A stretch of 64,000 nt of DNA, taken from assembly GCA_010015585.1 (NCBI GenBank), contig ML975165.1; one strand, 5' to 3'. The translations under genes and the position numbers were made by a program. This stretch comes from Eremomyces bilateralis CBS 781.70. Lineage: Eukaryota. The notes beneath the pieces were generated by a model. The model had not been told where the DNA came from and did no database searches. It was given only the letters and a program-made list of their open reading frames with translations. Positions within the stretch are counted from its first letter, which is position 1. Every line of letters begins with the position of its first letter. Positions 5,549 through 59,976 of this stretch are shown in pieces.

Positions 5549-7262
5549 TCATGAGTCCCACACCGGCCCGAACGCAGGAACCCCCCGGCTCTCCATCGAA
5601 TACACAATCTTCCGCGTCAGCCGCGGATTCGAGATCACGAACACCGCCTCCGCCCCGCTTTCCACGTACATCCGATACGTGATCTCCACCATGTTCGGTC
5701 GCCCGCTCGCCCGCGTGTCGATGATCACCGCCTCGGAATCGGCGCTGCGCACTGCATCCACGATACCTTGCCCGAACGTCCGTAGCGGGCTGGGGGTCGA
5801 CCAGAGCACGCGGGCCGGCTGGCGTCGGGAGGCGTCGGTGAGGAAGGAGAGGCATGGGCCGATGCCCGAGCCGGTAGTGACGACGACGACGTTGCGGAAG
5901 ATGCAGGCCATGCTGAGGACGCCGGTTTTCGGGAGCCCCTTCACCCAGTATTTGGTCTGGGGGTTCATGATGGCCGATTTGGTCCAGTCGCCGGCGTCGG
6001 AGATGATCATGCTGCCGCCGGGGGCACCGTCGACGGCGGGGAAGGTGGCGAAGGGATGCCATTCGAAGAGAGGGTTGTCGCTGATGGCGAGGCCGGAGAA
6101 GGGTTTTAGGGTCTTGTCGTAGTGAAGGCGTAAAGCGTGGTTGGAGAGGACTTCAGGACGGAATGTCCATTTGCGGAGACGTAGCCAGGGGAGGAGGATG
6201 TTGAAGGTGATTGCGGAGAGGAACCAGAACGTGGGCTGGTGGATGAGCTCGATGCCCATGTTTCGATGGCTGCGGGTCGAGAGTTCGTGTGCGATCAAGA
6301 GAAGCTCCACCCAGAAGAGCGCGACACCGGTCCATCCAGCAAACCGATGCGTCATCTCGAACGAATTGTGTGACATGAATCGGAATCGGGGGTACGCAAA
6401 AACGATGATCGTCAGGAGAAGGAGCAACAGGACATAGCTGAAAGTCAGAACTGGGATCGATCGCATGGAATGATCTACAAAGTTGATGGTAATCAATACG
6501 GTCAGGAGGATCAGCCAGACAGTTCCCGCCACGCCTGCACCGGAATGGACCCTGTTCACAACTGTCAGTCAACCCTCCCATGAACCTCTACGGGTAAATT
6601 AAAACATACCCGCCATGCTCGTAGATCTTCGCTAACATACGTCGAAGGCGTAGCGGTGCAGAGAGAGGCACGAGCCAGCACGTCCGAAACATGAAGTTCA
6701 CCACATAGTCCTGGCGGATGGTGATGGCCACGAGGATATTTGCCGACGCCGCGGTAGCCACGTGGGCTATGTCGATCTTCGCCGATGTCTTATTCAGGGC
6801 TAGAAGCACGATCAAACCGACGACGTTCAGGAGGAAGACGATCGAGAAGAGCCGGCGATACACGTTGAGGGAGGTGTGGCGTATATTGCGAACGAACCGG
6901 CTCTGCCGCTTCTCGGGAACGGTGGATGCGGTGCTACATGCACTGGTACTGACAGTGACGTCGGTTCGAAATGACGCTTGACTGTCTGTTCGTACATGTG
7001 CATGAGATGGAGGTGCAAGGCCATTCTCCAGGCTTCCCGCTTGCTTGAAGCTTTTCTCGATCTCATCCTCATTGAACGACACGCGGTTGGCGACGGACGA
7101 CGGAGCGTCTGGTGATGCCACCTTCAATCGTTTCTCGTAATCGGCGAACTGTGCGGCGGAGAATCCGCCATTGATCGGTTCGTTAGGGGCGGGAGTGACG
7201 ATGATGGTGGTGGTGTCGGATGGAGAGGGCGCATGCCTGGACGTGGTATCGCTTGGCTCCAT
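5549..7262 (-). CDS. tmpA: TmpA-like integral membrane flavoprotein/oxidoreductase (ferric-reductase-like TM region plus FAD/NAD(P)-binding domain); exons 7262-6610 and 6551-5549
   Basis: Intron 6609-6552 (GTATGT..CTGAC..CAG) joins KIYEHGG|VHSGAG. Motifs HNSFEMTHRFAGW, EWHPFATF, GDWT, VVVVTTGSGIGPCL and the C-terminal ESRGVPAFGPVWDS match the TmpA/TmpL family. No N-terminal adenylation domain, so TmpA-type rather than TmpB/TmpL. Confidence 0.85.
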
Positions 7263-7287
7263 GTGTTTGATGAGGGCCCCAGAGGAG

Positions 7288-7336
7288 GGGGGAGAGAGGA
7301 AAGGAAGAGGGGGAGAGAGGAAAGGAAGAGGGGGGA
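7288..7336. repeat. Two tandem copies of a ~21-bp purine-rich unit (GGGGGAGAGAGGAAAGGAAGA) just upstream of the tmpA start
   Basis: Read directly. On the tmpA coding strand it is a CT-rich tract typical of fungal 5' leaders. Confidence 0.7.
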
Positions 7337-10300
7337 GTATACGTAGGTGGTGGGATGCAAGTGAATTGACGTGTCGAGAAAATGGACAGAGGGTCAAGAG
7401 TCGCCATTTAAGAGCCGCAGACGGTTAGGGTATAGCGAAATGAAAATACAGGTCCCTAGCAACGGCAACGAGGACGGCGAAGACAAAGACACGGACTCAA
7501 TTGAATCGAACTTTCGCATGTGGGAACTTGCGTACCGACGGATTGGGAAACTCGGGAAGCCATCAATGGCACTCGCCACTCACTCAACTCAGGGCAGTCT
7601 CGAGAATGCTGAATGGCCAGTGACCACCGACCGGGACATGGGATTCTTCGCCCGACTGGGAATGACTCGATACGGTGACAAAGAACGGGGACTTTGCTGC
7701 TACCGTAGTGACCATATACCTGACGCCTGACCGAAAGTGAATCTAACGGGCCCAATTAGACCGTGGTATCGGGGTAACGTCGTACATGAGGCGCAGATCA
7801 GGTTCGAAGATGGTTTTCAGGTGGACAGAGGAACAAGTCAAAAATTCACGCATGCATGGATCCATCCTCCCATGGCAGTGGTCGTATGGTATCGGTACCG
7901 CACCACTACCGATGGTTTCGTCGTAATCCGTGCTGGGTAAATGGGACTACTGGTACCCTGTGGGCCGTGAAGGCGCGAACACCATGAAGTGCATGAACCG
8001 CTCAGGGAGTGGCCCGTGACGAAATGGGTCGCTGATCGCTGTGGCTAAGGTGGCCGCCCCAGAGAGAACCAGAAGATACGGCTCGGACCAATCTTCGCCA
8101 GCCACGGGCAAATCAAAGGCATTGAACAATTGAGGAGACTAATCGCTAATCACAGTAATCAGGGCTTGTGGGGGACCACACACGGGGTAATATGAACGAC
8201 GGACAAAAAGCGAGCTACTACAATATTCTTTCTGCAACCTGCATGCACAATTTGGATTCTGCTGCAGCGGGAAACTGGTAAGGATTAACGACGAGACTCA
8301 AAAAGTCAAAGAGTAGCCGGGGAAGGTGGAGTGAGTGCTGCATGTGGATAGCGGCTTGCAGGATCAGTTAGCAGGGGCTCAACAAATTCGAATCAGGAAG
8401 TGTGGCCGACGATTAGATGAACGACCAAATTGGAGAGGAATAGCGCCGAGAAAGTCCCAGTTGAATTGGGTTAGGCTTCTGGGGTGGGAATAAAACGTGG
8501 ATAATGTGATGATGGGGTTTCGAATGTGATTGGGGTCGGGTTGAAGGGGCGATATCGAGGGGATTCGATACGGACATGTGGTTGGATGAGAGGAATAAGA
8601 TGAGATGCAAGTATTCCGTACTCCGTATGCAACGGAGATGCGGTGATATGGTGACTTAGTGACTTTGTGTTCGACCGTTGTTCGCCCTTTGGGGCGGGAG
8701 AACAAGTCGAGAATACTGGGAGACAGAAACTGAAGAGCGACGATACATCCATCAATCCATGTTGAGTGTTCCTAGCGAGCTCTCACGGACCCTTCCGACA
8801 AGCCGGCCCGCTAATATCACCCTAAAGGCCCTAACGGCTAACAGATTATTCAGACCCCATCATGGCTCCTCTCCAACCACTCGGAGTGTCGGATGTCCTC
8901 GAGCGATTGAGTCTGCTATATCCGACTGGCTTTGCATCGCTTGCGTCTACGAACCATTCCTCTGCGCTTCAGCAACACTCAAACATTACGGAATACGACT
9001 CATTTCGTGCCCTCTGCGTCGACGAGTCAACTGGTCATATATCAGGCCATCAATACCATTGCCAGCCTTCATGAAGGCCAATTGACTCTATAACAGCAGC
9101 CGGATGCTACAGTGTCGCCAGTGGCCACGCTCACGTCACCTTGTCCCTCACCATACCAGGGTAGGTAAATAATAAATATAACGCAGGAAGAGGTTATTAG
9201 TTTTCCGTTAGGTACCAGTTACCAGGTTTCGCAGTATTATTCACAGGCGGACCTGCCCGGTTCCCTTGTATCAAATTAAATCTCCAATCCCAGTCCAACG
9301 ACCACAGTGTTACAAATTTCTTCTTCGACGGTTTTGTGGCCGAGCAAGATTTGGATTACACCGAACACAATCGCACGGAACCGCTCATACACAGCAACGG
9401 TCCAGGGCGACGTTGCCGTGTTCGTCCTCCAAACCATTTCATTGATTCATTCGTGTCAGTATCAACGACTTTGGTGCGACGTCCTCGATCATTGGTAATC
9501 TCCCCGCATCGATCGTCCGGCTGTGCAACCACACCTCTTCATTCTTCGTACCAAATCCCAGATGTGCGCCCAGGTTACTCGGGCCGGATGCGCCTCGATC
9601 TCATTTTCTCTACGATTGGCAATGCTGCGGGATCGATGTTCCTTGGGCGTCCGCTAGATCTCGTATTGATTTGACACGATCACTCGAGACGGCTGCTATC
9701 TCAGACATCACTTGGTCATGGGGTGACCCTCACTGAAAGGTATTTCGGACTTTCCTCATGATACGTTGCTGGACGGTGCGTAGTGGAAGCATGCAAGTGA
9801 GCGCGCCCCGGACCGGCAAAGCGGGAGGAAATAGTAGCGATAGGAGACCCTAGCTCGGCGCCTAGCCATGAAATATTCTCGAAGACTCCGGACCGTTTGG
9901 GGCGTGTTAAGATGATAACTAATGCGCTAGGTCGGGGGGATTTCTGATTTCTCAATTTCTCAAGTCGATTGAAGTTGCATTAGAGTGACCAAGACCCCGG
10001 GATTTCGAACCACGCTAATTCTATCTGACCAATAAAATTCGTCAATAATGAACCACCCCAGCCGAGGTTGAACTACCCCTGTCCCTGCCACCTGCTGTTC
10101 AGCCACTGACTTTCCTTATTGGTTGACTGTTGCAGTTTCCCCCTCGCTGGCTGGCAGTTCAGTTCGCCCGCTCGATTCAAAGGGGAGGGTTTTGCAATTC
10201 GATGAGATCACACAAGGTTTCATTCTGGAAGCTCTTAATCATCCTTCCATCAAAGCGGACTTGGCACATTTCTCTTTGTGCGACGCTGCCATCGCGATCT

Positions 10301-13300
10301 TGCGTCGTTGGTGTAACCTCCATGTCAGGGCGATGCCTCCCTCGGTATTTGATATCTTCGGCCACCGCAATCCTTCGTGCTTTTGCGCTCGAATATGGTG
10401 GGTATCAGGTGTGCATGTATGTGATCTAATCGGTACATCTCGGAATTGGACTGCACAATATTGCCATAATGCACTGACAATCAAGAGACGGAGACGCAGC
10501 ATCCGCTCGGTGTCGTCGCCGGGGGTTGAACTAAACTCGATACTCGGCGACTTTTGGCGATTCAGCTCTTCTATCCAGAAGGGAGAATAGCATTATTGCT
10601 CAAGCGGGGAACCTACCTTTCCCTACAGTCGGTATCAATAGTAGAGTGCCGGGTATTCTTAACAGGAATAGCTTCCTGCCGCTACTTGCACTCTGCAGGA
10701 TGGAGAATTACCTATTGCAAAGAGGTCTCCGCTGAAGGAAGCGATTATCCATAGATCCGGGTCACTTTGCTATGCCCTAGTTCCATTGCTGCAGCTCGAG
10801 CAAGTTTGAGTTCTGGATGCCTTTTAGGAATGCGGTCTTGGTCCACACTGGCACCAAAAACGTACCACATCTTCAGTCTCGCCAGGACCGAGAAATAGGC
10901 GCGCAAAGCACATCATACATGTCAAGCGCGTGGAAATTCCTGGTTTCATGTTCATATCGACACTGGTAGTACAAACATCCGGTGCCTGCGTCAAACATAC
11001 AATCAGCACCGGTAGCCGGGAGAGCTACGACTGATACGAGATTCGCTTCATCGATCCTCGAAATAGGGCAAACATGGACATCTTGATCCGACCAGGACCG
11101 AGACTCTGGTTACTCTTTTCTGCCACGATCCGCCCACCGACTTCCGGAAAGAGCGTGCAGTCTGGGCTGATCACACCCTCGTTCTCCCGTCTCAGATCAT
11201 CGGTGCCGCCAGTTTCGGTCTACCGTCGTGTCGCTTTCGCAGAAACGCAGACGGGGAAACCCATCAAGTCGAAACTAAAGCGTCGATCGACGATGTCGTC
11301 GAGCTCAAGCGGTACGTAGCCGTCGTGCCAGATAGAAGAATGGGGTTCTGGCCCATGTAGCTGCAAGTATCGCTGAACTAATCCAGATATCAAGCAACGA
11401 ATTGATGCGGAGTATATAGTAGAGTACTTCAAGGTTGTCCACAAGTACATATCCAGATTCCAGCCCACTAGCCGACTTCGGTCGAGGAGGGGTTCAGGAA
11501 AGTGGGGGGCCTTGGGGGACCATCAGACCGGGGATTGTATGTCTCAATGACGAGACAATCTTCATGAGCGGAACGACTCTCCACCAATTACGCAACCACC
11601 GACTGAGAATCATACGTACCTTTCAATGTGTGGTGCATGAAAAGGTCCTCTCTATCTGTAATGCGTTGTCGACAGCCCATAGAAGAAGTCCCCGATTGGA
11701 TTGGTGGAGCTGCGATACTCTACCGGTGACAACGAAATGGTGAGGTTAGAGGTATTTTCCCCGCTGCCCATTGCAGACCGCAACTGATCAACTCAATCGC
11801 CGAATCTCGGATTCTCTGCGTCTTCATGGCGTGATTAGATGGCCTGCGAGCGTCGTACCACAGCGCCACCGTCAGGTGGAGATGGAGGCGAAAATGCATC
11901 GAGCGAGCCGCAATGTCAGCAAGCGATGCTCTTGTCTCTCAACACTACCCGACTCGCTTTCACTATCATGGCAGAGACATCTCATCCTGTTCCGACGATG
12001 TGGATGAGCCTAGCTTTGCTTGAATGGTAATCTAATGCAGATTGCCGGAATGGGCGACCGCTGTACCGATCGTGATGCTGGGCGCTGGCCCAATCCAAAC
12101 CTGGGTTTGGCGGCATCCATTTGCCGGATGGAGAGCGGCAGACAGCAGTCGAGATTGATGCATAGTGCTAGATTTGGCCGCGGCAATGCAAGCAGAGAGC
12201 TTGGGAGCGCGGAGTCCCAGCGATGCGGTACTTGCTTGGTAGAGGTACTTCCCTGCGGCAGATTTCAAAACGTCGACGCAGTCGCAGCTTAACGGTTCGA
12301 GGAGGTCGCAAGTAGTGCTTTCAGCTTTACCGGTTGAATGCGAAGGATCCAGGAGCAGGACGAGCGACTGGCGACTGGCGACTGGCGTGTCGGGGACCAC
12401 GGCGCAACTTGCGAAAGCATGGGAAAAGTGAGGGAATATCTGAGTCCTGGTGCATTTGGTGGTGTTAGGTGGGGTCTGGTTACCAGCCTGTTGGGTAAAT
12501 ATACAAAGGCCGCCCAGCCGCGATTCCGGGGTCTTCGAATCCATGTCATCCATCCATTGCTCGGCTGGTTTCGTAGCGCGTGAAGTGGTCAATCATGAGC
12601 GGTGTCGAAGCGCGAAAATGACCACTTGATAGTTGACAAGGTGATTGTTGAAGATCGCGGATGCAGAATGTACAACAGGACAACGACGGGAGAGAAAATG
12701 GCTGGAAAGTTGACGATCTATCATCGTCGGCGACTGGAGAAACGCGATATGCCTTTCTCGCGCGCTGAGTGGACATAATAAGTGTCATCATCTCCCTTCG
12801 CGTCAATCTCACCCACCAAGAGGAGCAAGATCTCCGGTTCGTCACGGTCCTTCACTGTTGATGATATTGCTGATTATTTGTATTTTTTTACAAGTCTTCT
12901 CCACTACTCTCAGGCCAGTCGATGATCCGCAGACCACAGGACCCCATCCCCACCGTTGTTCGGCACTTGTTCCTAATTGCTTTAGTTATGTCTGGCTGTA
13001 GGCATTATTGCCTATTGGCCGCTTGATTCTTTTATCCTTCATCGTCGATTGAGCCTCCTGTAAGTTCGCACAGCAACAGCCATTCGAATTTCAACCGTAG
13101 AACATCCACCAATTGTCCTCTTGTCCTCTCTATCAATCGGTTGGCTCATCTGGTGCTCCCAGCAACCCCAACGGAGACATCATATCCCGGCCGTTTCCAC
13201 CGCCACAGATGCACTTGCAGGCACCATCGAATGCCATCTGAACACTAACCCCGACACTTAATGCTTCCGACTTAACTTTAATAACACTTTGCTACCGGGC

Positions 13301-13872
13301 GGAGGGTCCCATTCCCTCTACCGTAGCGGTAGTGGAAGAGTGGATCTTGCGCCGCCTTTCGATCGCCTCCTGTCGTTTCTTCTTGCCTCTTGGGAATGGC
13401 TGGTTTTAACCTTTCCATGGAGGCGTCGTGCTGTGTCCTCTCTGGCGGCGCCTTTGCTTCCTGTTCGGCCATTGCTGCCATTGCTGCCATCTCAAGTGTA
13501 TCTCTTTCCCTTCCGAACGTCTTCGGCCCTTTTGTCTTTCCGTCTTGTACATATCGTCGCCTATCGTCGCCTATCAAATTCTGTATGCCAATTGGCGGAT
13601 CCTATACATATGCTGCGACCCATTTATGCCTAACTCTCCAGTCTATGCTCTGCATTGCCTTCTCTCCCCTTCTCTTCGATTTTACTGATCATATCTTCCA
13701 CTCCCCGGGTTATCCTAGGAGCGATTGACCGTCTTTGCCCGCCTGAATCGCAATTGTACCACTTCGTTGTCGCATATACCAAGATTGTGATATTTATGTG
13801 CCCCGGGCCAGTCCCGCTCCGAAGCCTTCCATCATCCACCCCATCTCACGATTTTGTATTCAAATATTTACA

Positions 13873-16295
13873 ATGTCTATAACCACGGATATTGTATCAT
13901 GGACCTTCGGAGGAGAAGGAGGGTTGTCAGACCCTGATAAACCTGTACGGTCCCTTTTCTTTTCTCCATCTGATTGCCCCAGACAAGCACCCCATGCACC
14001 ATCTCCACTTTCGAGGCATTCATATATGAAATGCAGAATCGCTGACTTCCGCAACTGTATAGATCCTGATTGACACTGCGGACACTACTCGTGCTCTCTC
14101 ACATGCTCAGATCAAGAGCTACGTGCGGAGGCTCGTCGCGGGTTTGCGTGCCATCGGCGTTGCACCGGGCGATTGTGTCTGCGTGAATTCCTTCAACGAC
14201 GTTGGTGTTCCCCTGATTCCTTCACTTTGATTTCGTGTCACTTTTCGTATAGGGGGGCCACTTGGGTCTTTCCCTTTCTGGTTGTTTATAATCCAGATTC
14301 TATCCGTCATCTTTCTCAAATCAGTTACATAGGCGGAAAGTCTCCTATAGTTTGACGTTTTTTTTGGGCATGGCATCATTCCCGTTTACTTGAAGTCATT
14401 TGCGTCGAAGTTGCGCCTACCGTCGGCACTGAAGGATTTACGGTTTTGACAATCCCTTTTAGATCCTTTACTATGCGATTTACCTAGGTGCCATCGGCAC
14501 TGGAGCCCGTTGGACAGGTGTCAACCCGTCCTACACCGCACATGAGCTCACCCACCACATGTCCATGACGGAAGCTAAGGTGCTAATCGTCGAGCCGGCC
14601 TTGCTCACCACCACCCTAGAAGCCGCGAAGGAATGTGGGATCTCGGAGTCGAAGATCTTTGTATTTGACGTGCATGATGAAAACACACACCCACATCTCC
14701 AGTCGTGGGATGTGCTGCTCCAACATGGCGAGGAAGATTGGGTGATGGTGGACGATCCCTACACGACGACTGCGACGTACGCGTCGACGAGCGGAACTTC
14801 GGGATTGCCAAAGGCAGCGTTTCTGCCGCATTCATATCTCGTGTCGCAGGCAGAGCGACGGTTGTATCCGAAGGTGCCCTACGAAGTAAGTCGATATCCC
14901 AGCCCCTGGGTGACAGGCATGTCCGAAAGGAAATCATGTAACGCTCGGAAATCACCCGATTCTCCGACTGAACTGCCGTACGACGTTCATGACCATACGC
15001 TAACACACTCCAAGGTCCAACGGCTTACCCCTCTCCCGCCCTTCCACGTCTTCGCGACACCCCTTGTTCCGTCCAGCATCCACGCCGGCTGGCCGATCTA
15101 TATCATGCGGCGTTTCGACATGGCAGCCTTCATTACCTCGATTTCGAAATTCGCCATCTCCGAAACATACGCGCCGCCACCGGTGCTGCTCGGGGTTCCG
15201 CAGTCGCCGCTATGCACAAAGGAGAGCTTATCGACCCTGCGGCAGATCTGGACGGGCGGCGCGGGCGTGAAGTACGAGAATCAGTTGCCGTTCTACGAGA
15301 AGTTGCATCCGGATGCGCAAATTAACCAGGTGTGGGGGATGACGGAAGCGGGGTGGGTGACGTGCGTGCAGTGGGGAGAGAAGTCGGAGGACGATAGTGT
15401 TGGTCGGCCAGTAGAAGGATTCGAGATCCAGTATGTTACTTTATCCCCCTCCCCTAGCCTAGCCTCCCTTCTACCCGAGATACTAACGACGCTTACCTGT
15501 AGAATCATGCCCGAGTCCGGCGACCTAGTCACCACCGACGACACCCCCGGCGACATCCTCGTCCGCTCCCGCTCGCTCATGCTCGGCTACATCCAGAACC
15601 CCACCGCGACCGCCGACGCCTTCTACTCCCCCCAGGACGACTCCTCCCACCCCTGGCTCAAAACCGGCGACTGGGGCTTCCTCCGCCACGGCCGCGTCTT
15701 CATCGTCGACCGCCGCAAAGACCTCATCAAGGTCCGCGGCTGGCAGGTCTCCCCCGCCGAAGTGGAAGGCACCCTGCTCACCCACCCCGCGGTGCTCGAT
15801 GCCGCCGTCGTGGGCGTGCAGTTGCCGGACGCGGTGGCGGAGCACGCGCGCGCGTACGTTGTCGTGCGGCCGGGTCAGGAGGTCTCCGGGGATGAGGTGC
15901 GGAAGTGGGTGGGGAAGATGCTGGCGCGGTATAAGGTGCCGGAGGAGGTGGTGTTCATCGACAAGATCCCGAAGAACAGCACCGGGAAGATTCTGCGGAG
16001 GTTGTTGAGGACGCAGGACGTCCCTGTGGGGAGCGTGGCGGCGGAGTCCGGGGATCACACGGTGCACAAGAGGGATAGGGGGGCGGTGGTGGTGGATGAA
16101 AGGGCGGGAGATGAGAGTAGTAGTAGTAGTGGTAGTGGTAGTGGGGATGAGGATTTGGAGAGGGGGGAGGGAAAGGGCGGGGAGGAAAAAATTCGGGCGG
16201 GGACCCTGGCAAGGGTTAAGGGGTCGGTGGTTGGGGTGCTCAGGGCAGTGCTGGCGCGGTTGAAAGGGCTGTGGGCTCGACTTTTCAAGTCCTAG
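13873..16295 (+). CDS. afeA: 4-coumarate-CoA-ligase-like adenylate-forming enzyme (AfeA-like); exons 13873-13944, 14063-14200, 14463-14885, 15015-15430, 15503-16295
   Basis: ANL-family motifs STSGTSGLPKA, WGMTEAG, LKTGD, DRRKDLIKVRGWQVSPAEVE and IPKNSTGKILRR (catalytic Lys present). The N-terminus MSITTDIVSWTFG..ILID..RRLVAGLRAIGVAPGDCVCVNSFND was recovered by splicing four GT-AG introns. Confidence 0.88.
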
Positions 16296-17035: not shown

Positions 17036-18967
17036 CTACACTGTTCCTGCTACCTCCGTCGGCAACGCCACCTCCAAGATATCCACCCCTTTCTGAATCT
17101 CGCTCTTCCCCGGCATCTTATTCCTCCGCATCAACTCCGACGCCTGGCTCATATACGGATCCTTCCCCATACTCACCACCGCCACCACCGTCTCCCCCTT
17201 TGTATAGTACCCCACGAACGCCGGCTTTTGCGTATCTCCTACGATCACCACGTCGTCCCACCCGTGGTTCACATTCCCGCAGTACCGCATCTGCGACCCC
17301 AACGCGCTCCAGAAGATCGGGATGAACTCTGCCCGCGTCTTCCCTTGGATCGCTGTCGCCACCACGCGTCCCGCGTTCTGCGCGACGTTCCAGTGCTCGA
17401 TGCGGACGGGCTTGCCGTCTCCACCCGGTCCGTGGTACGGGTATGTGGCGATGTCGCCGATGGCGTAGACGTTGGAGAGGCCTTGCACGGCGAAGGACTC
17501 GTCGGTGAGGATGGAGCCGTCAGCTTCGAGTTTGACTTCGGGGGAGTCCTTAAGGAACTCAGTTGCGGGGGCGACGCCGACGCCCTCGATGACTAGGTCG
17601 GCGGGGAGCTGAGTACCGTCTTTGAGATGGACGACGCCGATCTTCGAGGGGTCTGTCTCGCTGGGTGTGCCCTTCTCGACGGATGCCTCCATCTTGAACT
17701 TGATGCCGTTCTTCTCGAGGATGGCGCGGAAAATGTTGCCGACCTTCTCGCCCATGACGCGCTCCATGGGGGCTTTCTCCATACCGATGACGGTGACATC
17801 GTTGCCTTTGGAAACGAGGCAGTTGGCGACTTCCAGCCCGATGAACGAGCTGCCGATGACGACTATCTTCTTCCCGTTGTCGCCGACCGCTTCCACGATG
17901 GATTTGGCGTGTGGAATGGCTCGGAGGACGAACACGTTGCCGAGGTCACCTTTCAGCCCTGGCAATGGCAGCCAGCGAGGCGAGCCGCCCGTGGCGAGAA
18001 CCAGTTTGGTGTAGTCGTGGGTCTTCCCAGATTTGGTAGAGACAGATTTGGAATTGAAGTCGATCTTCGACACTTCGTCGTCGATTATGTCGATGCTTGC
18101 GTCCTTGTAAAAATCCACCGGCCTCCATGCGATCTTAGAGACATCGGCAAGGAGGGCCTTAGAGAGCTTCGTACGATCAATCGGCCGGTATCCTTCTCTT
18201 GAGATAACCGTAATATGCCCCGTGTACCCGCCTCCTCGTAGGCCTTCAATGGCTCCAGTTGCTCCACTGCCTCTGTTGTTTGGCAAATTCCATGGTTAGT
18301 ATATGATTCCATAGGAGGGAGGACCGGACTTACCCTCCAACTACAAGCACCTTCTCATTCCCTTGCGCCTGGCATTTGATATTCAACTGCCCTCGACTGG
18401 CCTTGATAACCTCCTCTTCCCCGCGAATGTAGACACCCCCGTCCTTCTCAAAGACCTCATACTTCGCCAGCGGGTCCAAAGCCGGCGCATTCTCAATATC
18501 TCCCGTCTCCACATGGAAACATGCTACGGAGCAATCAGCCAAAGTTCCCAGTCCATCGCCCAAAGCCAATTGACTAGGCCTCGAGGATCCGAGTTTCTTG
18601 GTATGCACTCGTACTCACCTCCATGCCACGGGCAAGTCAATCGCCCTTCCCCCGTCAACACCCCCTTCACCAACGGCGCGCCATAATGCGTGCAATTCGA
18701 CGACAGCGCATGGACGCGATCCCTGACCTTCGCGAGCAGCACCTTCGCATCTGGAATTCCTTCGACTTCCAACTGCAGTTTTTCTCCATTCTTCAAACTC
18801 AGGGCATCGATTCCTTTCAGTTTATATTCCGGCATCCTCGCAGTGAAACCGACGCTGAATGGGCGACAGAGACGTATATGGCGCGGGATGGCGTGATTGG
18901 GGAGGAATGTGGACTTTGCTGGGCGCGGAAAATGGATGAGGTAAGGTCGGAGTGATGAGAGAGGCAT
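17036..18967 (-). CDS. aif1: Apoptosis-inducing-factor-like Rieske [2Fe-2S] plus FAD/NAD(P) oxidoreductase; exons 18967-18619, 18523-18334, 18272-17036
   Basis: Rieske motif CTHYGAPL..CPWHG|ACF across intron 18618-18524; VVGG|GSGA across intron 18333-18273; VVIGSSFIGLE, YAIGDIA, RIEHWNVAQNAG. Second in-frame ATG at 18835. Confidence 0.9.
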
Positions 18968-19552
18968 GAAATGGAAGGAAGATGGAAGGGAGAAGAGTTG
19001 AGTTCTAGGAACTCCGTTTTGTCTGGAAGGTCGATCACTGCTAGAGTGTTTACCTGCGATGATGGAGGGGAAGGCTGCTTACAATTGATCATCATGAATT
19101 CGATGATTCGCTGGTGACGTCGGTGACGTCGGCATTTCTTATCGATAACTCCGAGATCTACGCAACTGCGAGATTCGCAGGGGAGTCGGGGAGGGGAGTC
19201 CGGAGTATCTACTTTCGTACCTGGGACGATTTGCCCATCACTATATTAAGAGTTGGATAATTATTTCTCTTGTTTTTTAATTTGGCTCTATATCTTCATA
19301 TTCGATATTAGAGCTCGAGTAACACTCCCATCAATGTGATGGCGGTGTACAGTGAGTGTAAACGAGGCCCAGCCTCTGAAAGATCCTGAAATCCACTCGA
19401 CCACACTAAAATATCTCGCAATAAGGTATCATATATGCCATTTTCTCCCCGTGACATGCCATCGCCCTTCCGGGCCATCCATTCCCAACCTTCCCACAAC
19501 CAAACCCCTACAATGTCATTTCCCTCAAGCCTCCGCCCTCCTCCATCCATCC

Positions 19553-21646
19553 CTAACCCCTCAACTTCCCCGCCCAAATCTCCGTCTTCATCGCCTCCAA
19601 ATGCTTATGCATCTTCTCCAACTGCTGCCGCTCCTCTGCCTTCGGCGCTGTCGCCCGCCCCGCCAACTCGTGGTACAGCTTCGCGTACTTCGCGTGGTAC
19701 GCCTTGAATTTCTGCGCGAGTTCGAGCGTTTGTCGGGAAGAGAGGGGGACGGCGTCCTCACCCGAGCTGGACGAGTTGCTGGAGACGCCGGGTGTGGATT
19801 TGAGGGAGGTGGCGGTGGCTGCGGGGCGGATTTGGCGGAGGGGCGCGTCGGAGGAGCTTGTGGATGAGGAGTGCGGGCGGGAGGGGGCGTGGACGCCGTT
19901 GAGTTTGCGGGATTTGAGGAAGGGGGCGTCAGGGGTGGGATCGGCTTTGCGTTTGAGGGAGACGGGGGTAGTGGATGAGGAGGCGGGGATCTTCTTGGTG
20001 GGGGAGGTGGTGGAGGCGACATCTAGTTTGGATTTCTTGGTGGATGGTTGGAGGCGCTCGGAGGTGCTTTCTGCTTTGCGCTTGGTGGAAGACTTTGCGG
20101 AGTTAGAGCCTGCTTCTATATCTGAGTTGTTCATGGGTGGGGAGGAGAGCGGTGAGGAGGTCTTGGGTTTAGACACGGTTCCAAGCACCGCTCGGTGGGA
20201 GTTGGATGAGGTGGAGGCCTTGGCTGCATTTTTACTCGCCTTCACCGAAGGTGTGCTGCTCCCCGTCACAGCCTTGGGTTCTTTCTTCTTCTTGGGGACG
20301 TCTGTCGACGAATCGTCCCCTTTCTCGCGCGGGGTCCTGCTCTTCTCATCCTTCTCCGCTTTCTTTGGAGCCGCCTTCTTTGGAAGCCCGGTCTTCTTGT
20401 CTAGGGCTACGGTCCCCTTGGCAGCGGGAGGCTGTTTCAGGACCGGAGCTCCGGAGAAGTCCAGCTTGGATAGAGTCTTGCCCTTACCGCGTTCCTCCTT
20501 CGGCAGGAGTTTCTGCCATAAGGCGTCGGTCTTGGTGATCCGCATTCGGTCGAAAGCGTTAACGGCGTTGTTGATCACGGTCTGACGGTCAACGTCGTCG
20601 TAGCCGAATGACCACGGCTTGAGCTCCTTGTGGTATTTGTCTTTCAGGCGATAAGTTTTGTTTTGCTCATTGTACTGGGCAAGTGGCTCCAGTACTTTTT
20701 GAACCAGCTTTTGTTGCCCCGGTTCCGTGTTGATTGCCAGCTTTCTCATCAGGTCCTTCAGCGTCAATGCCTTGATTGCCAGGCAGTGCATCATCGGTTC
20801 TCGATAGGAGTTCATGATTGCTTGCTGCTTTGTGTCTTGTTTCGGTGCGGAGGTGGGTGCGGTAAGGTGGGAGGGAGATTGTCCGAGGAGGGAAGGACTC
20901 GGTGGAATCGAACGATTTGAAGGAGCTTTCAGCAGACCGTTGCGTGAACGAGAATAAGCTTTGCTTTTGAGTGGAAGTTCTGCAAGAGTTGTTCTGTGAA
21001 TTGTCAGTCTCAGCATATTGTCTCCGCATATTGGGACAATAGCAGCCTCTATAGGAAGTGAACTCAATAGGGCGATTCACAATGCCTGGATTGACAATAT
21101 CGAATCGCCCAATAGAGCACCCTGAAGCTCTACTGTGATTCACGTACGCTTTCGCAGCTCTATCCCTTTCATAGTCCGCCATATTCTGCTTCAGAGCCTC
21201 CAATGCCGTATCTACCCCAGAGTGTGAATCGTCTGACTCGTGCACAGCCAGTCCATGGCTAAGCACACCGCGATACTCCCACTTGCCCGCATGTTCTTCA
21301 GTGGTCTCGTAGACTTCATGTCGGAATCGTTCTTTGGTGGCGTCGAGCGTATACTTCTTCCCATCGAGTTTCAGGGTCTGCGTTTGAGCTTATTAGCAAT
21401 CTATTCCTTTGTATCTCCCACCCCTCCTATCCAATGCTACGATTATAGAACGTAAACACATACCGGAGTTCTTCCAAACAAAACCTGTGGTGCCTTTCCA
21501 CTCCGTATACAATCCAACAGCTCGTCGACCACGCTCTTGCTCATGTCCAACTGCATGATCTGCGCCGATTTCCCTTTCCTCTCCGGCAACGAGTCGGGGG
21601 CGGCATGGAGAGCCACCGGGCCCTCGAGATCGAGTAAAGATATCAT
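19553..21646 (-). CDS. RNA polymerase II elongation factor ELL-like protein; exons 21646-21464, 21377-21148, 20993-19553
   Basis: Introns 21463-21378 and 21147-20994 have canonical ends and join in frame. Central winged-helix-like block (KYHKELKPWSFGY..DRQTVINNAVNAFDRMRI..WQKLLPKEERGKGKTLSKL) and an occludin/ELL-like C-terminal helix (LAQKFKAYHAKYAKLYHEL..LEKMHKHLEAMKTEI). Confidence 0.72.
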
Positions 21647-28188: not shown

Positions 28189-29262
28189 TCACGCTGCAAG
28201 CCGGTTGCCCGGTCCAATACAACGCCCCGGATGCCAGATATTGAACAGATACACCGCAACAATGACCGGCATGAACTCGAGACACCCAAAATACACTTCA
28301 TTCGAGGTCAGCTCTCCAAAGATCCCCTGCGCCGTCTCCGCCAGCCGGAAACATGTCCGCAGATACACAAGCACGCTGGCAACAACCATCGCCACGATGA
28401 ACCAGATACTGACCCGCTCCTGCTGAACGGATTGTTCGTGGGACGAGACCGGGAGGCCTTCCTTTCGGTCAGGGCGGCCGCGGATCGTGTTGCGGGCGCG
28501 GAAGAGGAAGATCGCTAACAGCACCTCGAAGAGGAAGAAGGCGGCGACTTGGAACGCTAGGCCTCCGAGCAGGATATTGTTGGCCATGGTGGGGTCTTTG
28601 TTGTTCGTCTGCGAGACGCCGATGCCGGCGGCGCCGCCGACCTGGATGCAGGTGGCGATGACATCGCAAGTCACGAAGATCCAGATGATCAGCTTGGGAC
28701 GGAGGGGCGCGTAGGCGCGGCCATTGGGGATGCGAAGGATGAGGGCGGAGAGGAGAGTGTAGATGGAGGCGGAGAAGAGGACGGGGGCGGTGACGATGAA
28801 GAAATATTGGATCACGAAGTATTTAACGTTGTATGGAGATCGCCCTGGAGGGACATCAGTATGTGGTGGGGTGAGGGAGAGGGATAGGCATACGGCTGCT
28901 GAGCATCCGTGCGGCGTAACCGACGATCTCCATGATGGTTCCCACGCACATGGGGGTGAAGTACCATGTCTTGTACCGACGTAGCTGGAATCCATGGGCG
29001 ATGGCAGATATGGCGAAGAGTACAATGGCTAGGATCGCCAGCACGAAGGATGGCGTGTAGCTGGTTGATTTAGTCGAGGATGCAATGATCGTACCACGGG
29101 TGCAACCTACCCATAGATGATGATACCTGAAGCAAAATTCACACGTCAGTTCCGGCCCATACCACCACCATATGTACAGGTACACTCACGAGCATCATCA
29201 GGCGTATTCGGATTGGGGAAGTTCGGATCGATATAACCAATCGGAGGACGTCCTTCGGCCAT
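28189..29262 (-). CDS. RTA1-like (lipid-translocating exporter family) 7-TM protein; exons 29262-29190, 29126-29111, 29060-28894, 28844-28189
   Basis: IIIYG|YTPSF, EIVGYAAR, QYFFIVTAPVLFSASIY, IFVTCDVIATCIQVGG, LRTCFRLAETAQG, WHPGRC are RTA1 hallmarks. Three canonical introns. Confidence 0.9.
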
Positions 29263-34518: not shown

Positions 34519-35965
34519 TTATATCTTCTCTGTCCCGAGGTCTCGTATGAGCTCTCTCGAGATCTCAACGACCTTCCTAACAACCTCCTCATCCACAACC
34601 CCCTCCTGCCACGTAACCCCAACCGACAAACACCCATCCCCTCCCGTCATGATGCCAACCTCCACCGCCGGCCCCGTCACAGTTGCACTCTGACTGAACA
34701 CCGCCCTCCCCATCCCCTCCCCCCTAACGACCCCCAAGCTCGACACCTCAAAACTATCCCCCCTCTCCTTCCCCACCTTCCCCGCAAAGAACTCATGCAC
34801 ATCCGAAACGTACCGCAACAGCCCCGAATTCGTATCCCGCCCATCCTTCTTTACCAACTTCGTGACCTCGTCCCGGCTTCGTCGCGCCTCAGCCCAGAAC
34901 GCCGCCCGATCCTCGGACTTCGTGCCAGACCGGGTGTACGCCGTGTTTACCGACGCGACCACAACCCCCATCGTTTCCTCTGCGCGTGCTTTCTCCTCCC
35001 CCCGCACGAACCGCCGCAACGATACCGGCACCGTGCACCCCAACGTCTCCCACTCGCCCGGCAGAGCCTCGAAGAGCGCAGCGGCGATCACCACCTGGAA
35101 CCCAGCAGTCAGCGACGTCTGCTGTGTTTTGCACGCGGCGGCGAACGACTTCGTCTCATGGGGCGTGAAGCTGAAACTCCGGAAGCGGACGGCTAGGGGC
35201 GTCGTGGCGGGCATCCCAGTCCAGATGCCTTTGGGGCGGGATGGGAACCAATCGCTCCAGAGGGCGCGGAGGAGGAAGGGGAGGGAGAGGGGGAGGGGGA
35301 GGAGGGATTCCATGGGGGGAGAGAGGGCGTGGGTGGGTGGCGAGGGGGCTAGCGGCTGGGGCGTAGAGATGGCAAGAGTTGCTGGGTCAGTGAGGCTGGA
35401 TGCGAGAGAGCGCTGGATGACGAGGCCAGAAAGACCGTCGCCGATGGAGTGGTGGTAGATGAAGCTGATGGTGACGTGCGTTGGCGACGACGGATGGGAG
35501 GAGACCACGGCTCTCCATAATGCTGGTGGGTGCTCTTCGCCTTCAGATGGGAGGAATCGGGTGTTATGCTCGCTCTGCAAGATTTCATCCAGCTCCTGAT
35601 CTTCTGAGGCGCATGACTCCGGTGCCCGTCGACGCTCGACAAATCTGATAACCTTGGATAGGTCGATGGACGGTGCCTGGACGAAATACGCATCCGTCAG
35701 CTCGTCAACGGTGATTGCGGAAAGCGCCGGATGTGCATCGATCGCTCCCTTGAACGCGGCATAAATCGATGCTTCGAGCGACGTCGGACGTGTCTTTAAA
35801 ACGTAAGTCGCTGTCACCCCGACATTGTTGTAATATCCCAAGGCATGGCGAACACTGGAGAAGCGCTCCAATTTGCCTGGTTGTCGGTTAGAAGGTGTTC
35901 CATCAAATTCGGGGCTTAATTTAGAACCTACCAAGTTTTCTAAGAGTTCTAGGTTTCCCTTCCAT
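34519..35965 (-). CDS. Alcohol acetyltransferase-family (ATF/CoA-dependent acyltransferase) protein; exons 35965-35932 and 35876-34519
   Basis: RKLG|KLERFSSVRHALGYYNNV, catalytic HXXXD (YHHSIGDGLSG) and SFEVSSLG..FSQSA. 55-nt intron 35931-35877. Confidence 0.88.
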
Positions 35966-36532: not shown

Positions 36533-38452
36533 CTCAAGCATTAGCTTCCCGTAGCAATTCCTGATATTGTACGTGTCACGTGCAGAGAGGGGCTCGACGA
36601 ACCCCATCAAAACTCAAGATTGCTTCATCACCATTGATATTCCCCACATGTGCCACGCAGAGAGGCCTGACGGGCGTAGGAATAAACAATCAATCATTCA
36701 ATCATTATTGATATTACTAGTATCTAGTGATTTATCCTACACCATATTTACTTAAATTTTCTGATGCCTCCTATCCGTCAGACACGTCGAGTCGCGCAGA
36801 GACATAATTTATCGATTACTCAGCTAACCACCATCGCTGTATGCCGCCATTTTGGCCAGACATTCCCCCAGATATCGACCGAGCTCCGCATCCCAACTAC
36901 GAGCGTATCTAGCGCTTATCAACGTGTGTATGGAAGAGCCAAAGACTTTGCGTGCTTGCGCGTTGGCGGAGGGGAAAATTTACCTCTAAATTGGCAGCCA
37001 TCGCTTCTCGATTTCCAGCGAAGTCTCGATGCCTGCGCACAAGAAGAGGAGCATCGTGGGCGCCCGGCCACGGCAGGCATTGTCAAAGACGCGTTACGCG
37101 ATACAGCGACACGGGACGAACAAGCACAAGATAAGCCTTGGACTCAAGTCGCGCGCGAAGTAAGCGAGAACCTTGGTATACCAGTGCCAAAAACTACAGC
37201 ATATAGAATCCTTAAAGATGAGTTTATTCTCCGTCGACGCCGGCCTCCACGGAAGCTTGAACTTACCCCCTGGCACAAAAACGACAGGAAAAGGCTTGCA
37301 AGTTGGGCGCTACCAAAGCTCGAAAATGGGGATATTTTTATCTTCACAGACGAGATGCTGGTAAATACAAACAATAGTCGGAAACCCCTCGCGGTTACAC
37401 GCCCACGAGGCGCTAATCCATTCGATTTCTCACGATCCCCTCCAGACGTATTTCAAGCTATTATGTTTTGGGGAGCAATATGCTGGGGATATGACTTAGA
37501 GGGCACGGGACCATGCCATGCGTGGGAAGCGGAGACACAGGAGGAACGAGAGACCATCGATCGCACGATCTCGGATGAGAACCAGGTCATGATCCACGAG
37601 ATGGAGCATGACAGAGCCGAGGCACGGCGTCCTGGGACCCGCCAGTACCGTCATCTGCAGGAATTAAATGTAAATATACAGAGGTAAGGTCCAAGTCGCA
37701 GTCGTCATGTACTCGTTAAGGTCTTTCCTATTCTTCCCCAAGCTGTCTCCTTCAATCCGAGCTTATCTTCGTTACTTACCCTATTATCTGCTCATCTACT
37801 TACTTTATATATATAGGGAAAATCAGGAACACGGTACACGCCGTGCACGGCGTCGTCCGGAATGGGAATTCAAACAGGAGCTTGCTAAACGCGATAAAGG
37901 TAAAGGGGGGGTCGATTGGGCTCGATATCGAGAGATGATACTCCGTCCGCTATTATTTCCGTACGCAAGAACGATCCAGCGCGTTACAGGCAGGACTGTC
38001 TGGATTATTGAGGACAATGCTTCACCCCATACAAAGGCACGAAAGTGGACAATCCAGGAACGACAAGAGCAGGGTATCAACGTCGTTAAATGGCCCCCTA
38101 AATCCCCAGATCTTAACCGTGTCAAGCGTATATGGGACTGGATGAAGCTGAAGCTTCCGTTTGAGGATCTACGGAATGCATCAGGCAATTTAGAGCGGAA
38201 GAATGCGGTAGATGCGTTGTATAAACTCTGGAGAGAATGTCCCAGGGAGAAGGTTGATAAGGAGGCTAACTTATTCCAGAAAGTCCTACTAAAGGTGCTT
38301 GAAAATGATGGAAATAATAACTTCTTTGCTTAATTAGCCTCTTACATATTCTAAACTTAAATTAATGCCTTTGCACTGCCTCTGTGTGGAGATGAAGGAG
38401 GGGGACCTAATTAGGAAATTCACGTGATACACACAATTTTGGGAAGCTTGAG
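36533..38452 (+). mobile_element. Tc1/mariner-IS630 superfamily DNA transposon, 1920 bp, TA target duplication, imperfect TIRs
   Basis: TA at 36531-32 and 38453-54. The right end (38421-38452) reverse-complements to CTCAAGCTTCCCAAAATTGTGTGTATCACGTG. The left end (36533-36582) reads CTCAAGC[ATTAGC]TTCCC[GTAGCAATTCCTGAT]ATTGTACGTGTCACGTG, the same blocks with insertions. It encloses a DDE transposase. Confidence 0.8.
36764..38333 (+). CDS. Tc1-like (DDE_3) transposase, 478 aa after removing intron 37684-37816; catalytic Glu replaced by Lys
   Basis: N-terminal HTH-like segments, IFIFTDEM, MFWGAI, IIEDNASPH, KWPPKSPDLNRVKRIW (consensus SPDLNPIE). The 133-nt GTAAGG..TAG intron joins the two ORFs in frame. 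Confidence 0.82.
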
Positions 38453-45876: not shown

Positions 45877-48800
45877 TCAATATCCACCGCCCCTCCTTCC
45901 TCCGTACCCGCCCTCATTTTCCCGCCGCCCATACTCCTCATCATCTCCCCTCCCATAGCTTCCCCCTTGGCTGTACCCCCCGCCTCCACCCCCAGAATAC
46001 TCACTCCCCCCACCATACCCTCCCGCCTGCCTCTCCTGCGCATACTCCCCTCCCTGCTTCCCATACGTGCCCCCCCCTCCATACGTCGCCCCACTCCCCT
46101 CATTATACCCGCCCCGCCCCTCATACGCCCCACTCCCCTCATTACACCCGCCCCGCCCACCATACCCCCCGCCACTCCGCCCCGTCTCATACTCCCCCGT
46201 CGAGTAACTCCCCTGCCCATACGTCCCCGACCCCGCGCCCAGCTCGCTCTCCTCGCGCCGCGATTCGTTGTAGCCGCCGCGCCCGCCGTAGCCGCCCTCG
46301 TCGTCGCGGCGGTAGGTGGAGGAGCTATATTCGGGCTCCGCGCCGCGGGAGTACTGCGCGGATGAGCTGTGCTCGCGGCTTTCTTCGTTGTACCCGCCAC
46401 GGCCTTGGTAGCCGCTAGAGGAGTGGGAGGCGGACTCGTTGTAGCCACCGCGACCTTCGTAGCCGCCAGAGCCGTAGCGATGGGTTTCGTGTTTGTCGTG
46501 TTTGTCGTGTTTGTCATGCTTGCCGTACTTGCCGTGCTTGTCGTCGCTTGAGTCGTTGGAGTCATCGTCCGAGTCCTTGCTATAGTCGCCGTGCTTCTTC
46601 TCTTCTTTCTCGCGGCGCTTGCGCTCTTTCTTGGCATAGTCGTCTTCGTCATCGGACTTGTTCTTGTAAGAGGAGCCGCCGTGGGTGCTGCGAGAAGATC
46701 AGTAAGTGGTCAGAGAAATGGGGTCAGGATTATGGTTGGTTAGCTGCGGGGGAAGACGTACCGAGATTCGGTCTGGTATGAACGAGTAGATCCACTGTAG
46801 CTGGTCTGAGTATGGCTGCTGTACTCCTCACGGTGACCGCCGCTTGGATATTCCGTGTGGCGATACTCCGCCTGTTCATGGCGGCTTTTGTCGTCGTACC
46901 GTCCACCCTGATGATGCCCCGACTCGCTGTACTTGGTCGTGTAGCTGCCATCGTCATGATGCTCCTTCTTCTTCGACTTCTTATGCTCGTCCTTCGGCTT
47001 GTCGAAGGCACCAGAGAGTAGGCTCCCGCCAACATCGCCGACAAGACCTCCGAGCATGCTGCCGAGGACCCCTCCGCCAACCGCCTCACCCGCAGCCTTG
47101 CCAACATGGTCCATCGGAGACTTTCCAGGGCGTCCACTTCCACTACCGCCACCTCCCAACAGGTTCTGAATACCGCCAATGGCGCCCGAGCTCGTCGCCG
47201 TCCCAGCGGTCGGCAGACCCAGCGGTTTCCCACAGCCGTGCCCCTTGTCGTGCACGCCCTCCTTATGATTGCGGCCGGCCTGGACCCCCTCGCGGCTCAA
47301 CTTCCCGCGCAGATCCTGGCGCGACCGCTCGGACTCGCCGCGCCACCACTCCTCCACGGTGCAGAACATGATCTGGCGGCCCTCGTGCGCGCCGTCCTCC
47401 CCGTGGTCGCGCAGGGCGGGGTGGTGGAAGACGCCGCCGATGATGCGATTGATGGTGCGGCCGACGTCGGCGCGCTCGTCGTCCCAGCAGTCCATGAGCT
47501 GGGGGACGACCCATTTGACGATGGCGGTGGCGGTCTTGCCGGCGGGCTCGTTGAGGACATTGGAGAAGTGGTCCTTGGACAGCATGGAGTGGGTAGGGTC
47601 GGTGCAAGAGTCGTTGTTGAAGACGATGTGCTGTGCCTCACGGGACGAGGTGATGACTTCACTGCTACCGGTGGCGAGCTCGTTCTTGATTTGGCTCATG
47701 ATGGGGAGGACAAACGGAGCGAGTAGGGAGAAGACGAAGAGGTTGAGTTGCTCGGTGAATTGCTCGAGAAGGTCGGGAAGAATAGGGATCTTCTCGATCG
47801 TCTCGGTGATGCTGTGCATGATCTCATCGTGGTACGCCATGATCGGATAGACCTGCGTCTTCATGATCTCGCTGATTTGGCGCGTAAACTCCTCCGGCTG
47901 CTTCGGCGAGATGTTCATGTTCTGCATCTGAGCAGCAGCCGCATTCGCCTGGAGATCGTCGGCCTTCTTCTTCTCGTCGTCGCCGCCAAACAGACCGCTG
48001 GGAAGCTTGTCGAGGAAATCCTTGAGCATGCTCCCATTCTGTTGCTGTTGAGTCGAGTTCATGGTGCCTTCGAGCTCATCCATTTCGGATTGGGTCACTT
48101 TGTCCGACACTTCGCCCATCACGGAGTGGAGGAAGTCAACACCTCCGAACGTTCCAGTCACAATCGGGTAGACGGCGTCACGAGCTCCCTGGATTTGGAC
48201 CTGAGTACGCCGGCCAACGTGGGGGAAGACGTCACGCTCGCCCAGCTCAATGAGAGCCAGCTCCGTGTAGTTGGAATGCGCAGAGTAGTCTTGATTGTTG
48301 TTAGCGTTTACCAATTATTTATCATGGGTTACATACCTTCCAAGCAGTGCAGACCAGTGCCCATCAGTCGCAGCGCTTCCCAAAGCTCGTCCTTGTTTTT
48401 GCTTCGGGCATACCTGCGACCAAGATCGATGGAGCGTCCAAAGAGATCTCGAATAAGGCCGGAAGAAGTCGCAATGCCAAGGTCTTCGGAGGCAATGTAG
48501 TTCTTGAGGCCTGTACGTTGATCAATGTCCAGCTCACGGCGCTCGTCGACTGGGCCACGAAGCCTGGGATCGTAGCGACGAGCATCTAAGTTGTCCGCAT
48601 AATCCTTTGGGTTATCAATGTGCTCTTCCGGACGGTAGCAGCCCAGCCTCTCCTCGGTGACTTCGAACTCGCGGGTGCCAAATCCAAAGCTAAGGAACCC
48701 GAGAATCCAGAGAAGGAGGCGGATAGCCTATGAACGAAAGCTTAGTACGGACGATTTATCAAGGACATACCAATGACATACCTCGCCGCTAACGTGCTTC

Positions 48801-49081
48801 ACGGTGCCAACATCGATTGCCTGAGAGTAGTCACGTAGCCAGTTCCCAAAATACACGCGCTTGACGTCCATCTTGGAGAACTTCTTGCCGCCGGCCGAGC
48901 GGGCCATCAGCAAACCAAGCAGGGTGTCTTCGATGTCGCCATGACGCCAGTTCTGACCTTCGATCTTGGAGATGGAGGCAATGTTTCCGGCACCAAAGGC
49001 ATTGGCAGGGCGAGCTTGCAGGATGAGGATCACGATGATGCTGCTCAGCAGGAAAAAAGAGGGGGAGATACGGATCGCCAT
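45877..49081 (-). CDS. het-c: Heterokaryon incompatibility protein HET-C family, with signal peptide and long Gly/Tyr/Arg-rich tail; exons 49081-48782, 48727-48337, 48289-46762, 46687-45877
   Basis: AFGAGNIASISKIEGQNWRHGDIED, VYFGNWLRDYSQAIDVG, RPEEHIDNPKDYAD, GTGLHCLE|DYSAHSNYTELAL, TGTFGGVDFLHS, DPTHSMLSKDHFSN. The last exon is open to TGA at 45877-79. Confidence 0.93.
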
Positions 49082-49717
49082 GGTGGGGGTGATGACAGAG
49101 GTCAATGTGTGATTATAGCGCGGGGTGCCTTTTAGGCTGAGGGATGTTGTTGTGTTTGTAACTGATATGGAAGGGAGATGGGAGATAAACAAGGGAGGAT
49201 GGATTTGGATGGTAGAAGGGTCCTGAGAGAACCAAAAATCAGAGTGCGGGAGAGGAGGTAGAAAGTGAAAGTTGTGTGTGGGTGAATGCGGGGAGATTGG
49301 GATGTGAGGTCACAGTATGAGCCCTTCGGTTTCACGTTGCTGCAAAGGTGGGGTGTTGCTCAGGGGTTACGTGTCTCATTTCTCTCATAGCATCGCATAG
49401 CAACTCAACATCTATCAACATTGTAAAGTAGCAACAAAACGCCCATATCAGATACAGTTCCCAGCTTGATGATTCGTCGTTGAAGTCATCCTTCATCAGA
49501 AATGTGCGTATAAGGGATATATCCATCCAGTCCTCCCCAATTCCTTCCAGCAGGTCCTGTCATGGCTCTATCCCTCTCTCCACCACCAACATAGGCTTGA
49601 TGTGATGAATCCATCATTGACTACTTACTCAACCGATCGGGAAGTACTCCCACTCAGGCGTAAACCTCTCGTCCTAAAGCCACCATTAATCGTTAATCCC
49701 GGGGCACTGGGAAGAGG

Positions 49718-59618: not shown

Positions 59619-59976
59619 AAGCGTCGTCCTCACCCGAGTAATCGGAATCGAATGGCACCTCACTCCAACCATTCTGCTTTCGCAGGGTAGGCAGGAGATC
59701 GATACGCCGCGTATTGCACTCAAGTGTCATGCGCACACACACAATCTTCGCACCGACTCCCATGGAGCGACCTCTCTTTCGAAAAGCGCCCCGAGATTTC
59801 TGATGCCGAATGCAGGCACAAGTCGCGCCAGGCCCTCACGGGCAGCAGCCAGAGCTCTCGCCATGAAGACAAGAGGGTAGCGAAAGGTTGAAGATTACTC
59901 CGAATTTCTCATTTGTCCAGTGATCAGAAATTCTGTTCATGGACAAATAAACGCAGCGTTGGTGAGGACGACGCTT
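59619..59976 (-). ncRNA. RPR1: Nuclear RNase P RNA (about 350 nt)
   Basis: Perfect 16-bp P1 (59961-76 with 59619-34); P2 ACGCUGCG/CGCGGCGU; P3 AUUUGUCCA/UGGACAAAU; CR-I GAGAAAUUCGGAG (59910-59898) pairing with CR-V CGAUUCCGAUUACUC (P4); CR-II UGGCGAGA, CR-III CAGAAA and CR-IV AGUGCAAUA in canonical order. Confidence 0.9.

Follow-up and report, generated by a model that had tools for sequence, protein, structure and literature searches.

In Aspergillus nidulans, afeA (AN0054) and tmpA (AN0055) belong to a single pathway leading to an extracellular conidiation signal, unidentified as of the 2016 paper on the two genes (PMC4804170). The afeA mutant is rescued by wild-type medium and by neighbours across a filter, afeA overexpression induces conidiation, and afeA/tmpA double mutants resemble the single mutants (PMC4804170). 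The same paper reports afeA-tmpA synteny for the Aspergilli only. Fusions of the TmpB, TmpL, ChNPS12 and 03009 type also join a TmpA module to an adenylating enzyme and lack a carrier domain (PMC4804170, PMC2766074, PMC2823734).

The locus described here lies in a 64,000-nucleotide stretch of contig ML975165.1 of Eremomyces bilateralis CBS 781.70 (the window; coordinates count from its first base). E. bilateralis is a dung fungus of the Dothideomycetes. The window carries a TmpA-family gene on the minus strand and a 4-coumarate:CoA ligase (4CL)-like gene on the plus strand. Clade membership of the ligase and the widespread linkage of such ligases to TmpA identify them as the Eremomyces counterparts of afeA and tmpA, far outside Aspergillus. 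As in A. nidulans, the genes are adjacent and inversely oriented, the ligase has the catalytic lysine and lacks a type 1 peroxisomal targeting signal (PTS1), TmpA stands alone, and the ligase falls in the same clade, judged by a proxy for AfeA. The spacing differs (6.6 kb here, about 1-5 kb in the metagenome pairs), identity to the proxy locus is about 37% for the ligase and 44% for TmpA, and box II, box L and one pocket residue of the ligase differ. Taken by itself, the Eremomyces locus is an ordinary orthologue of the published pair; what is added is its range, a one-haem prediction for TmpA and a bacterial operon.

Placement of the ligase

A. nidulans AfeA itself came up in no search; absent from the trees, it was represented by metagenome locus L078, whose ligase frames, matched by eye, read almost identically to AfeA in Fig. 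S3 of PMC4804170 and which stands head-to-head with a TmpA gene. In an IQ-TREE analysis of 38 rows, one clade of 25 rows (support 100/100) united the window ligase and the proxy with every TmpA-linked ligase, and the peroxisomal clade of PTS1-bearing 4CL-like ligases was its sister (96/89). A 76-row FastTree agreed with this grouping. Placement of the window ligase in the PTS1 clade was tried and rejected (forced placement, p-AU 1.8e-91). An earlier model-made reading of the letters alone (the sequence-only reading) had proposed an afeA-like ligase, and the trees bear this out. Twelve other adenylating enzymes of Eremomyces were placed, none in the AfeA clade; one (L013, C25) is a member of the PTS1 clade. 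Some 16 kb ahead of the window is a further AMP-binding gene (L016, G000:C17:216707-218389), which also lies outside the AfeA clade.

Residues agree with the trees. K512, the equivalent of the catalytic K544 of AfeA, is present in 59/59 clade members, and the box I P-loop is present in the window ligase. The Phe of an H-x-F pocket motif, common to the clade and the proxy, occurs in 57/59 members against 0/20 of the PTS1 group. PTS1 occurs in one of the 59 members; the window ligase ends F-K-S. It thus differs from its peroxisomal sister clade in targeting signal, pocket residues and linkage to tmpA. The best matches among solved structures were plant 4-coumarate:CoA ligases (E 8e-67).

Within the clade, the window ligase sits in a Dothideomycete branch and is not sister to the proxy, with which it shares about 34-37% identity. 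It carries the motifs GDILVRS and DRRKDL where the narrow Aspergillus-type subclade has GELYVRG and GR(T/S)KEL (boxes II and L), and W at pocket position 325 where the AfeA proxy has V. By its sequence it is therefore a member of the broad AfeA clade and not of the narrow Aspergillus-type subclade. The W/V exchange and the low identity also mean that the substrates of the window ligase and AfeA may differ, a point against the scheme favoured below.

Linkage of the pair across fungi

Linkage was assessed in two sets. For named species, both genes were recorded from one strain and a shared contig was judged by equal-sized contigs or by consecutive tags. The metagenome set comprised the best 80 of 350 fungal TmpA loci, corresponding to 48 distinct genes, 18 of which were flanked by 8 kb or more in each direction. 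In 19/21 named species, tmpA and the ligase were on one contig or had consecutive locus tags. Tags were consecutive in seven (Verruconis, Paraphaeosphaeria sporulosa, Pycnora, Villophora, Calogaya and two cf. Caloplaca), and both genes were on contigs of 6-20 kb in Amniculicola and Glonium; for five species on contigs of 0.9-2.8 Mb, the evidence is the shared contig only. The 18 well-flanked metagenome genes comprised two TmpB-type fusions and 16 standalone genes, ten of which had an apparently intact linked ligase (seven head-to-head, two in tandem, one in both arrangements). The linkage is far above chance and, as the sequence-only reading had supposed, extends well beyond Aspergillus.

By their tree neighbours, linked pairs occur in Dothideomycetes and in Leotiomycete-like, lichen and Aspergillus-like lineages, a spread suggesting that the pair probably predates the divergence of these fungal classes. 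No literature on wider afeA-tmpA linkage was found in a search from which subscription journals were mostly outside the scope. Exceptions weigh on the other side: the two genes are on different contigs in Microthyrium and Lecanora helva, for three of the 16 standalone metagenome genes the long tmpA frame is accompanied by a decayed ligase whose stops are in the same place, and three have no ligase within 8-10 kb. Decayed remnants with stops were seen on lichen-type contigs (L053/L086, L062/L067/L069 and L064; about 12100-15000), where partner loss appears to be in progress.

That adjacency is inherited gene order of no functional meaning is already disfavoured, and we give it almost no credence. 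The gene trees of the two partners agree (rho 0.78 over 25 pairs), as plain vertical descent would also produce. Other window neighbours, however, recur in only 3/80 fungal loci (L037, L039, L042) and the ligase in about 33, and the A. nidulans genetics stand against this explanation as well. So does a local inversion that preserved linkage: L089 and L098 have near-identical ligases, with tmpA at a similar distance in opposite orientation.

Gene structures and transcription

The tmpA-like gene has two exons on the minus strand and encodes 551 residues. Exon 1 (6610..7262, ATG at 7262) encodes a disordered N-terminus, transmembrane helices (TM) 1 and 2 and loop B; exon 2 (5549..6551) encodes TM3-TM6, the FAD-binding and NAD(P)-binding domains and the stop, as placed by the model and the fold match. 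Between them is a predicted GT..AG intron of 58 nucleotides (6552..6609), spliced in RNA run X1. The public TmpA model (496 residues) lacks 55 N-terminal residues; an intron called there in exon 1 is absent from the X1 RNA contig. The top database match was 'integral membrane protein TmpA' of E. bilateralis CBS 781.70. Family PF26733 ('03009_C'), to which exon 2 contributes, was assigned as a precomputed domain with atlas matches at 0.98-0.99; one Pfam scan of the window frames gave no PF26733 match for this product.

The ligase gene (13873-16295, plus strand) has five exons encoding 613 residues, identical to P0121 letter for letter, with AMP-binding and AMP-binding_C domains; its top database match was 'acetyl-CoA synthetase-like protein' of E. 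bilateralis CBS 781.70. Exons 1 (13873..13944) and 2 (14063..14200) are followed by exon 3 (14463..14885) with the P-loop, exon 4 (15015..15430) with pocket residues H222, F224, G293, G324 and W325, and exon 5 (15503..16295) with K512 and the C-terminal tail lacking PTS1. RNA joints were found at 13944/14063, 14200/14463, 14885/15015 and 15430/15503.

All five predicted introns of the two genes appear as clean joints in X1 contigs, which shows transcription and splicing of both; the intact divergent pair described by the sequence-only reading stands. Both were spliced in the one library, so the two transcripts were present together; the contigs show presence and splicing, neither levels nor co-regulation, and the co-expression expected earlier is upheld to that extent.

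The divergent intergenic region (7263..13872, 6,610 bases) is single-copy within the genome and, in agreement with the earlier claim, holds no recognisable intact gene: 0/68 stop-to-stop frames of at least 55 residues matched Pfam at E<=0.01, an Rfam scan returned nothing, and no blastn or tblastx match was found against the 80 fungal TmpA loci. One RNA contig is unbroken from 6609 to 9886, contigs reach 2.6 kb (7263-9886) and 3.0 kb (10866-13872) upstream of the two start codons, and a low-depth piece lies at 9999-10813. The region is presumed to be a bidirectional promoter.

Fold and histidine pattern of TmpA

In Eremomyces TmpA the motifs RLH(F/Y)D and GSGIGP come after six membrane helices. 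Both motifs are named in PMC2766074, where flavin binding is also reported for a TmpL fragment. Residues 69-496 matched the NOX/ferric-reductase fold at 13-17% identity, with a six-helix membrane domain and FNR-type FAD/NAD(P) domains. This layout and the R..F..H spacing before TM5 resemble those of SpNOX, NOX2, NOX5 and the ferric reductases, with STEAP a further relative; the TmpA C-terminus, ending W-D-S, is unlike theirs. Canonical members carry a pair of haem histidines, 13-14 residues apart, on each of TM3 and TM5 (four in all), whereas TmpA has one conserved histidine per helix. Histidines are numbered as in P0001, and NOX2 haem residues were compared after PMC9568551. No conserved histidine lies in the outer half of TM3 or of TM5; the conserved ones are on the cytosolic side only, so that TmpA is modelled as likely holding one haem and exporting no electrons. 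Two alignments disagree with this assignment: a profile alignment paired His165 with the outer (second) TM3 histidine of ferric reductases, and another run moved His231 to TM3. With the two histidines placed differently, the haem assignment is based on topology and spacing. Haem ligands may already have been treated in the 2006 TmpA paper.

The same pair might work reductively, TmpA using NAD(P)H to reduce either an enoyl-CoA or the acyl-AMP or acyl-CoA, the latter two giving an aldehyde or alcohol. We think this unlikely, although it has several points in its favour. In NOX/FRE enzymes electrons run NAD(P)H -> FAD -> haem, the GSGIGP nucleotide motif is retained, and the label 'adenylate-forming reductase' implies reduction. 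The Pfam family is named 03009_C, and 03009 appears in a list of proposed amino-acid reductases, with specificity for Ala/Val/Ser (PMC9605436). A hydride reduction would, however, need no one-electron haem; the Cys-Gly and HPF(S/T) of this genome's own ferric reductases are replaced by Ser-Asn and HxFA in TmpA; and no report of reductase activity was found in the literature covered.

A second, divergent standalone TmpA is encoded elsewhere in Eremomyces (L004:2819-4555, G000:C6). No TmpB-type fusion was found in the genome.

Bacterial relatives and the proposed reaction

Bacterial TmpA relatives were taken as the best 80 of 187 from a scan of species genomes (L117-L196). An adenylation domain was directly upstream of TmpA or fused to it in 29/80 loci (six fused), and an enoyl-CoA hydratase was directly downstream in 25 of those 29, in Pseudomonadota, Chloroflexota, Bacteroidota and Actinomycetota (examples are L118:5307-9051, L161:5374-9835 and L125:5195-8974). 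A two-component pair was present at five bacterial loci and DUF6733 at five; the three-gene operon is sometimes beside a two-component system. No literature on this operon was found. TmpL and its orthologues are called fungus-specific in PMC2766074, and bacterial stand-alone NPS12-type adenylation domains are noted in PMC2823734. A hydratase also occurs at fungal TmpB-type loci L104 and L108-110, in line with what PMC4804170 remarks about tmpB.

The bacterial adenylation domains are NRPS-type; they share 37-47% identity with the fused fungal ones and, where a match exists, ~20-27% with the window ligase. The identification of the window pair as a split TmpB/TmpL was rejected on this ground, the fused domains being likewise NRPS-type and equally distant from the window ligase. 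TmpB/TmpL-type proteins combine a fused NRPS-type domain with an accompanying hydratase, whereas the window pair consists of separate genes, its TmpA has no such N-terminal domain, and no hydratase was found. The activate-then-oxidoreduce logic of the sequence-only reading fits the pair; its equation with a split TmpB/TmpL does not. Scanning of window frames turned up no polyketide synthase (PKS) or NRPS domain; the sequence-only reading had supposed that cluster finders would pass over a pair with no such core.

TmpA is thus tied to two unrelated activating enzymes, and a carrier domain was seen with neither, which speaks for an adenylate or CoA ester as the substrate; by analogy, the operon with hydratase points to CoA-ester chemistry. 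In beta-oxidation-type pathways a ligase, a dehydrogenase and a hydratase follow in that order, which the bacterial order mirrors; from this a CoA-ester intermediate and an oxidative direction are suggested. In the scheme we favour, and to which we give an even chance, an AfeA-type ligase and a one-haem TmpA would activate and then oxidise a substrate to give a developmental metabolite. The ligase would convert a hydrophobic carboxylic acid (fatty or aromatic, as its 4CL/acyl-CoA ligase kinship suggests) via acyl-AMP to the CoA ester. TmpA, a predicted one-haem NOX-fold membrane flavoprotein by its conserved histidine positions and topology, would oxidise the ester at the cytosolic face, passing electrons from FAD through haem to a membrane acceptor such as quinone or O2. 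The oxidised ester would start a small diffusible metabolite, probably acting in development generally and not in conidiation alone, the signalling role being suggested by the A. nidulans genetics.

Several observations count against this scheme. No biochemical activity is on record for either enzyme in the literature covered, no hydratase was found beside AfeA-type pairs, no ligase or hydratase lies near the second Eremomyces TmpA, and 50/80 bacterial loci have neither partner. These partner-less loci, some with TmpA fused to a cyclic-nucleotide-binding domain, would also suit TmpA as a stand-alone membrane enzyme of redox or reactive oxygen species (ROS) balance, as proposed for TmpL, with the ligase a co-regulated neighbour and not a supplier. 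TmpL affects intracellular ROS (PMC2766074), and decayed ligases stand beside long tmpA frames. This account is nevertheless improbable: the TmpA family is tied to two unrelated adenylating enzymes, the Aspergillus double mutants resemble the singles (PMC4804170), and the outer-haem ligands serving O2 reduction in NOX2 appear absent.

A bolder form of the oxidative scheme, which we regard as quite speculative, would make TmpA a new single-haem NOX-fold class: its nucleotide site would bind the adenosine-bearing ligase product (acyl-CoA or acyl-AMP) in place of NADP(H), and the enzyme would dehydrogenate this product; two unrelated adenylating partners would have been recruited, and a diffusible signal would be made in fungi and bacteria. 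If so, the bacterial operon would be a short route to the chemistry of the Aspergillus sporulation signal. In either form, the histidine pattern and the operon give testable predictions (one haem, a CoA-ester intermediate) and a small bacterial system for finding the reaction.

Actinobacterial TmpA proteins with an N-terminal cyclic-nucleotide-binding domain (L190:6242-8161, L191:6494-8413, L193:6215-8146, L195:6269-8152) have no adenylating partner and may possibly be redox enzymes regulated by cyclic nucleotides. In Mixta, Erwinia and a related genome (L129, L131, L134, L137, L142, L143) a lone TmpA gene lies in a housekeeping stretch; in L129 it is between a Na+/H+ antiporter with a LysR regulator and a riboflavin kinase/FAD synthetase.

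Role outside Aspergillus

The Eremomyces host is a Dothideomycete that differs from A. nidulans in being described without an asexual morph (PMC4150071), so that the term conidiation signal does not simply transfer to it. A gene labelled TmpA rises after meiosis in Podospora, which is said to make no clonal propagules (10.1101/2024.12.09.627484). By analogy between these cases, the role is probably wider than conidiation, or is not signalling outside Aspergillus. Presence of the pair across Dothideomycetes, lichen and Leotiomycete-like contigs would make it likely a general fungal pathway with no PKS/NRPS core and not a species-specific sporulation story.

The pair could instead be catabolic or detoxifying, initiating the CoA-dependent degradation of an acid of environmental or internal origin, with the Aspergillus sporulation defect a side effect. 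Retention in a species described without conidia and in lichen fungi would suit this, as would the resemblance of the bacterial ligase-oxidoreductase-hydratase order to beta-oxidation-type catabolism. Rescue of the afeA mutant across a filter and induction of conidiation by overexpression (PMC4804170) argue otherwise, as does the lack of a peroxisomal signal in the ligase, and we find this explanation doubtful.

Other features of the window

Five neighbours were recorded on the minus strand: a Rieske and pyridine-nucleotide oxidoreductase gene (17036-19078), an ELL-domain protein gene (19553-21389), an RTA1 gene (28189-29028), an alcohol acetyltransferase gene (34519-35964) and a Het-C gene (46740-49309). 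None of the five looks like a conserved component of the pair. A DDE_3 endonuclease domain spans two overlapping frames in a low-GC stretch (36731-38333, plus strand), probably a DNA transposon remnant. A match to nuclear RNase P RNA (RF00009, 33.4 bits) lies at 59626-59969 on the minus strand, between genes for a zinc dehydrogenase and an LRR-endonuclease/exonuclease/phosphatase protein.

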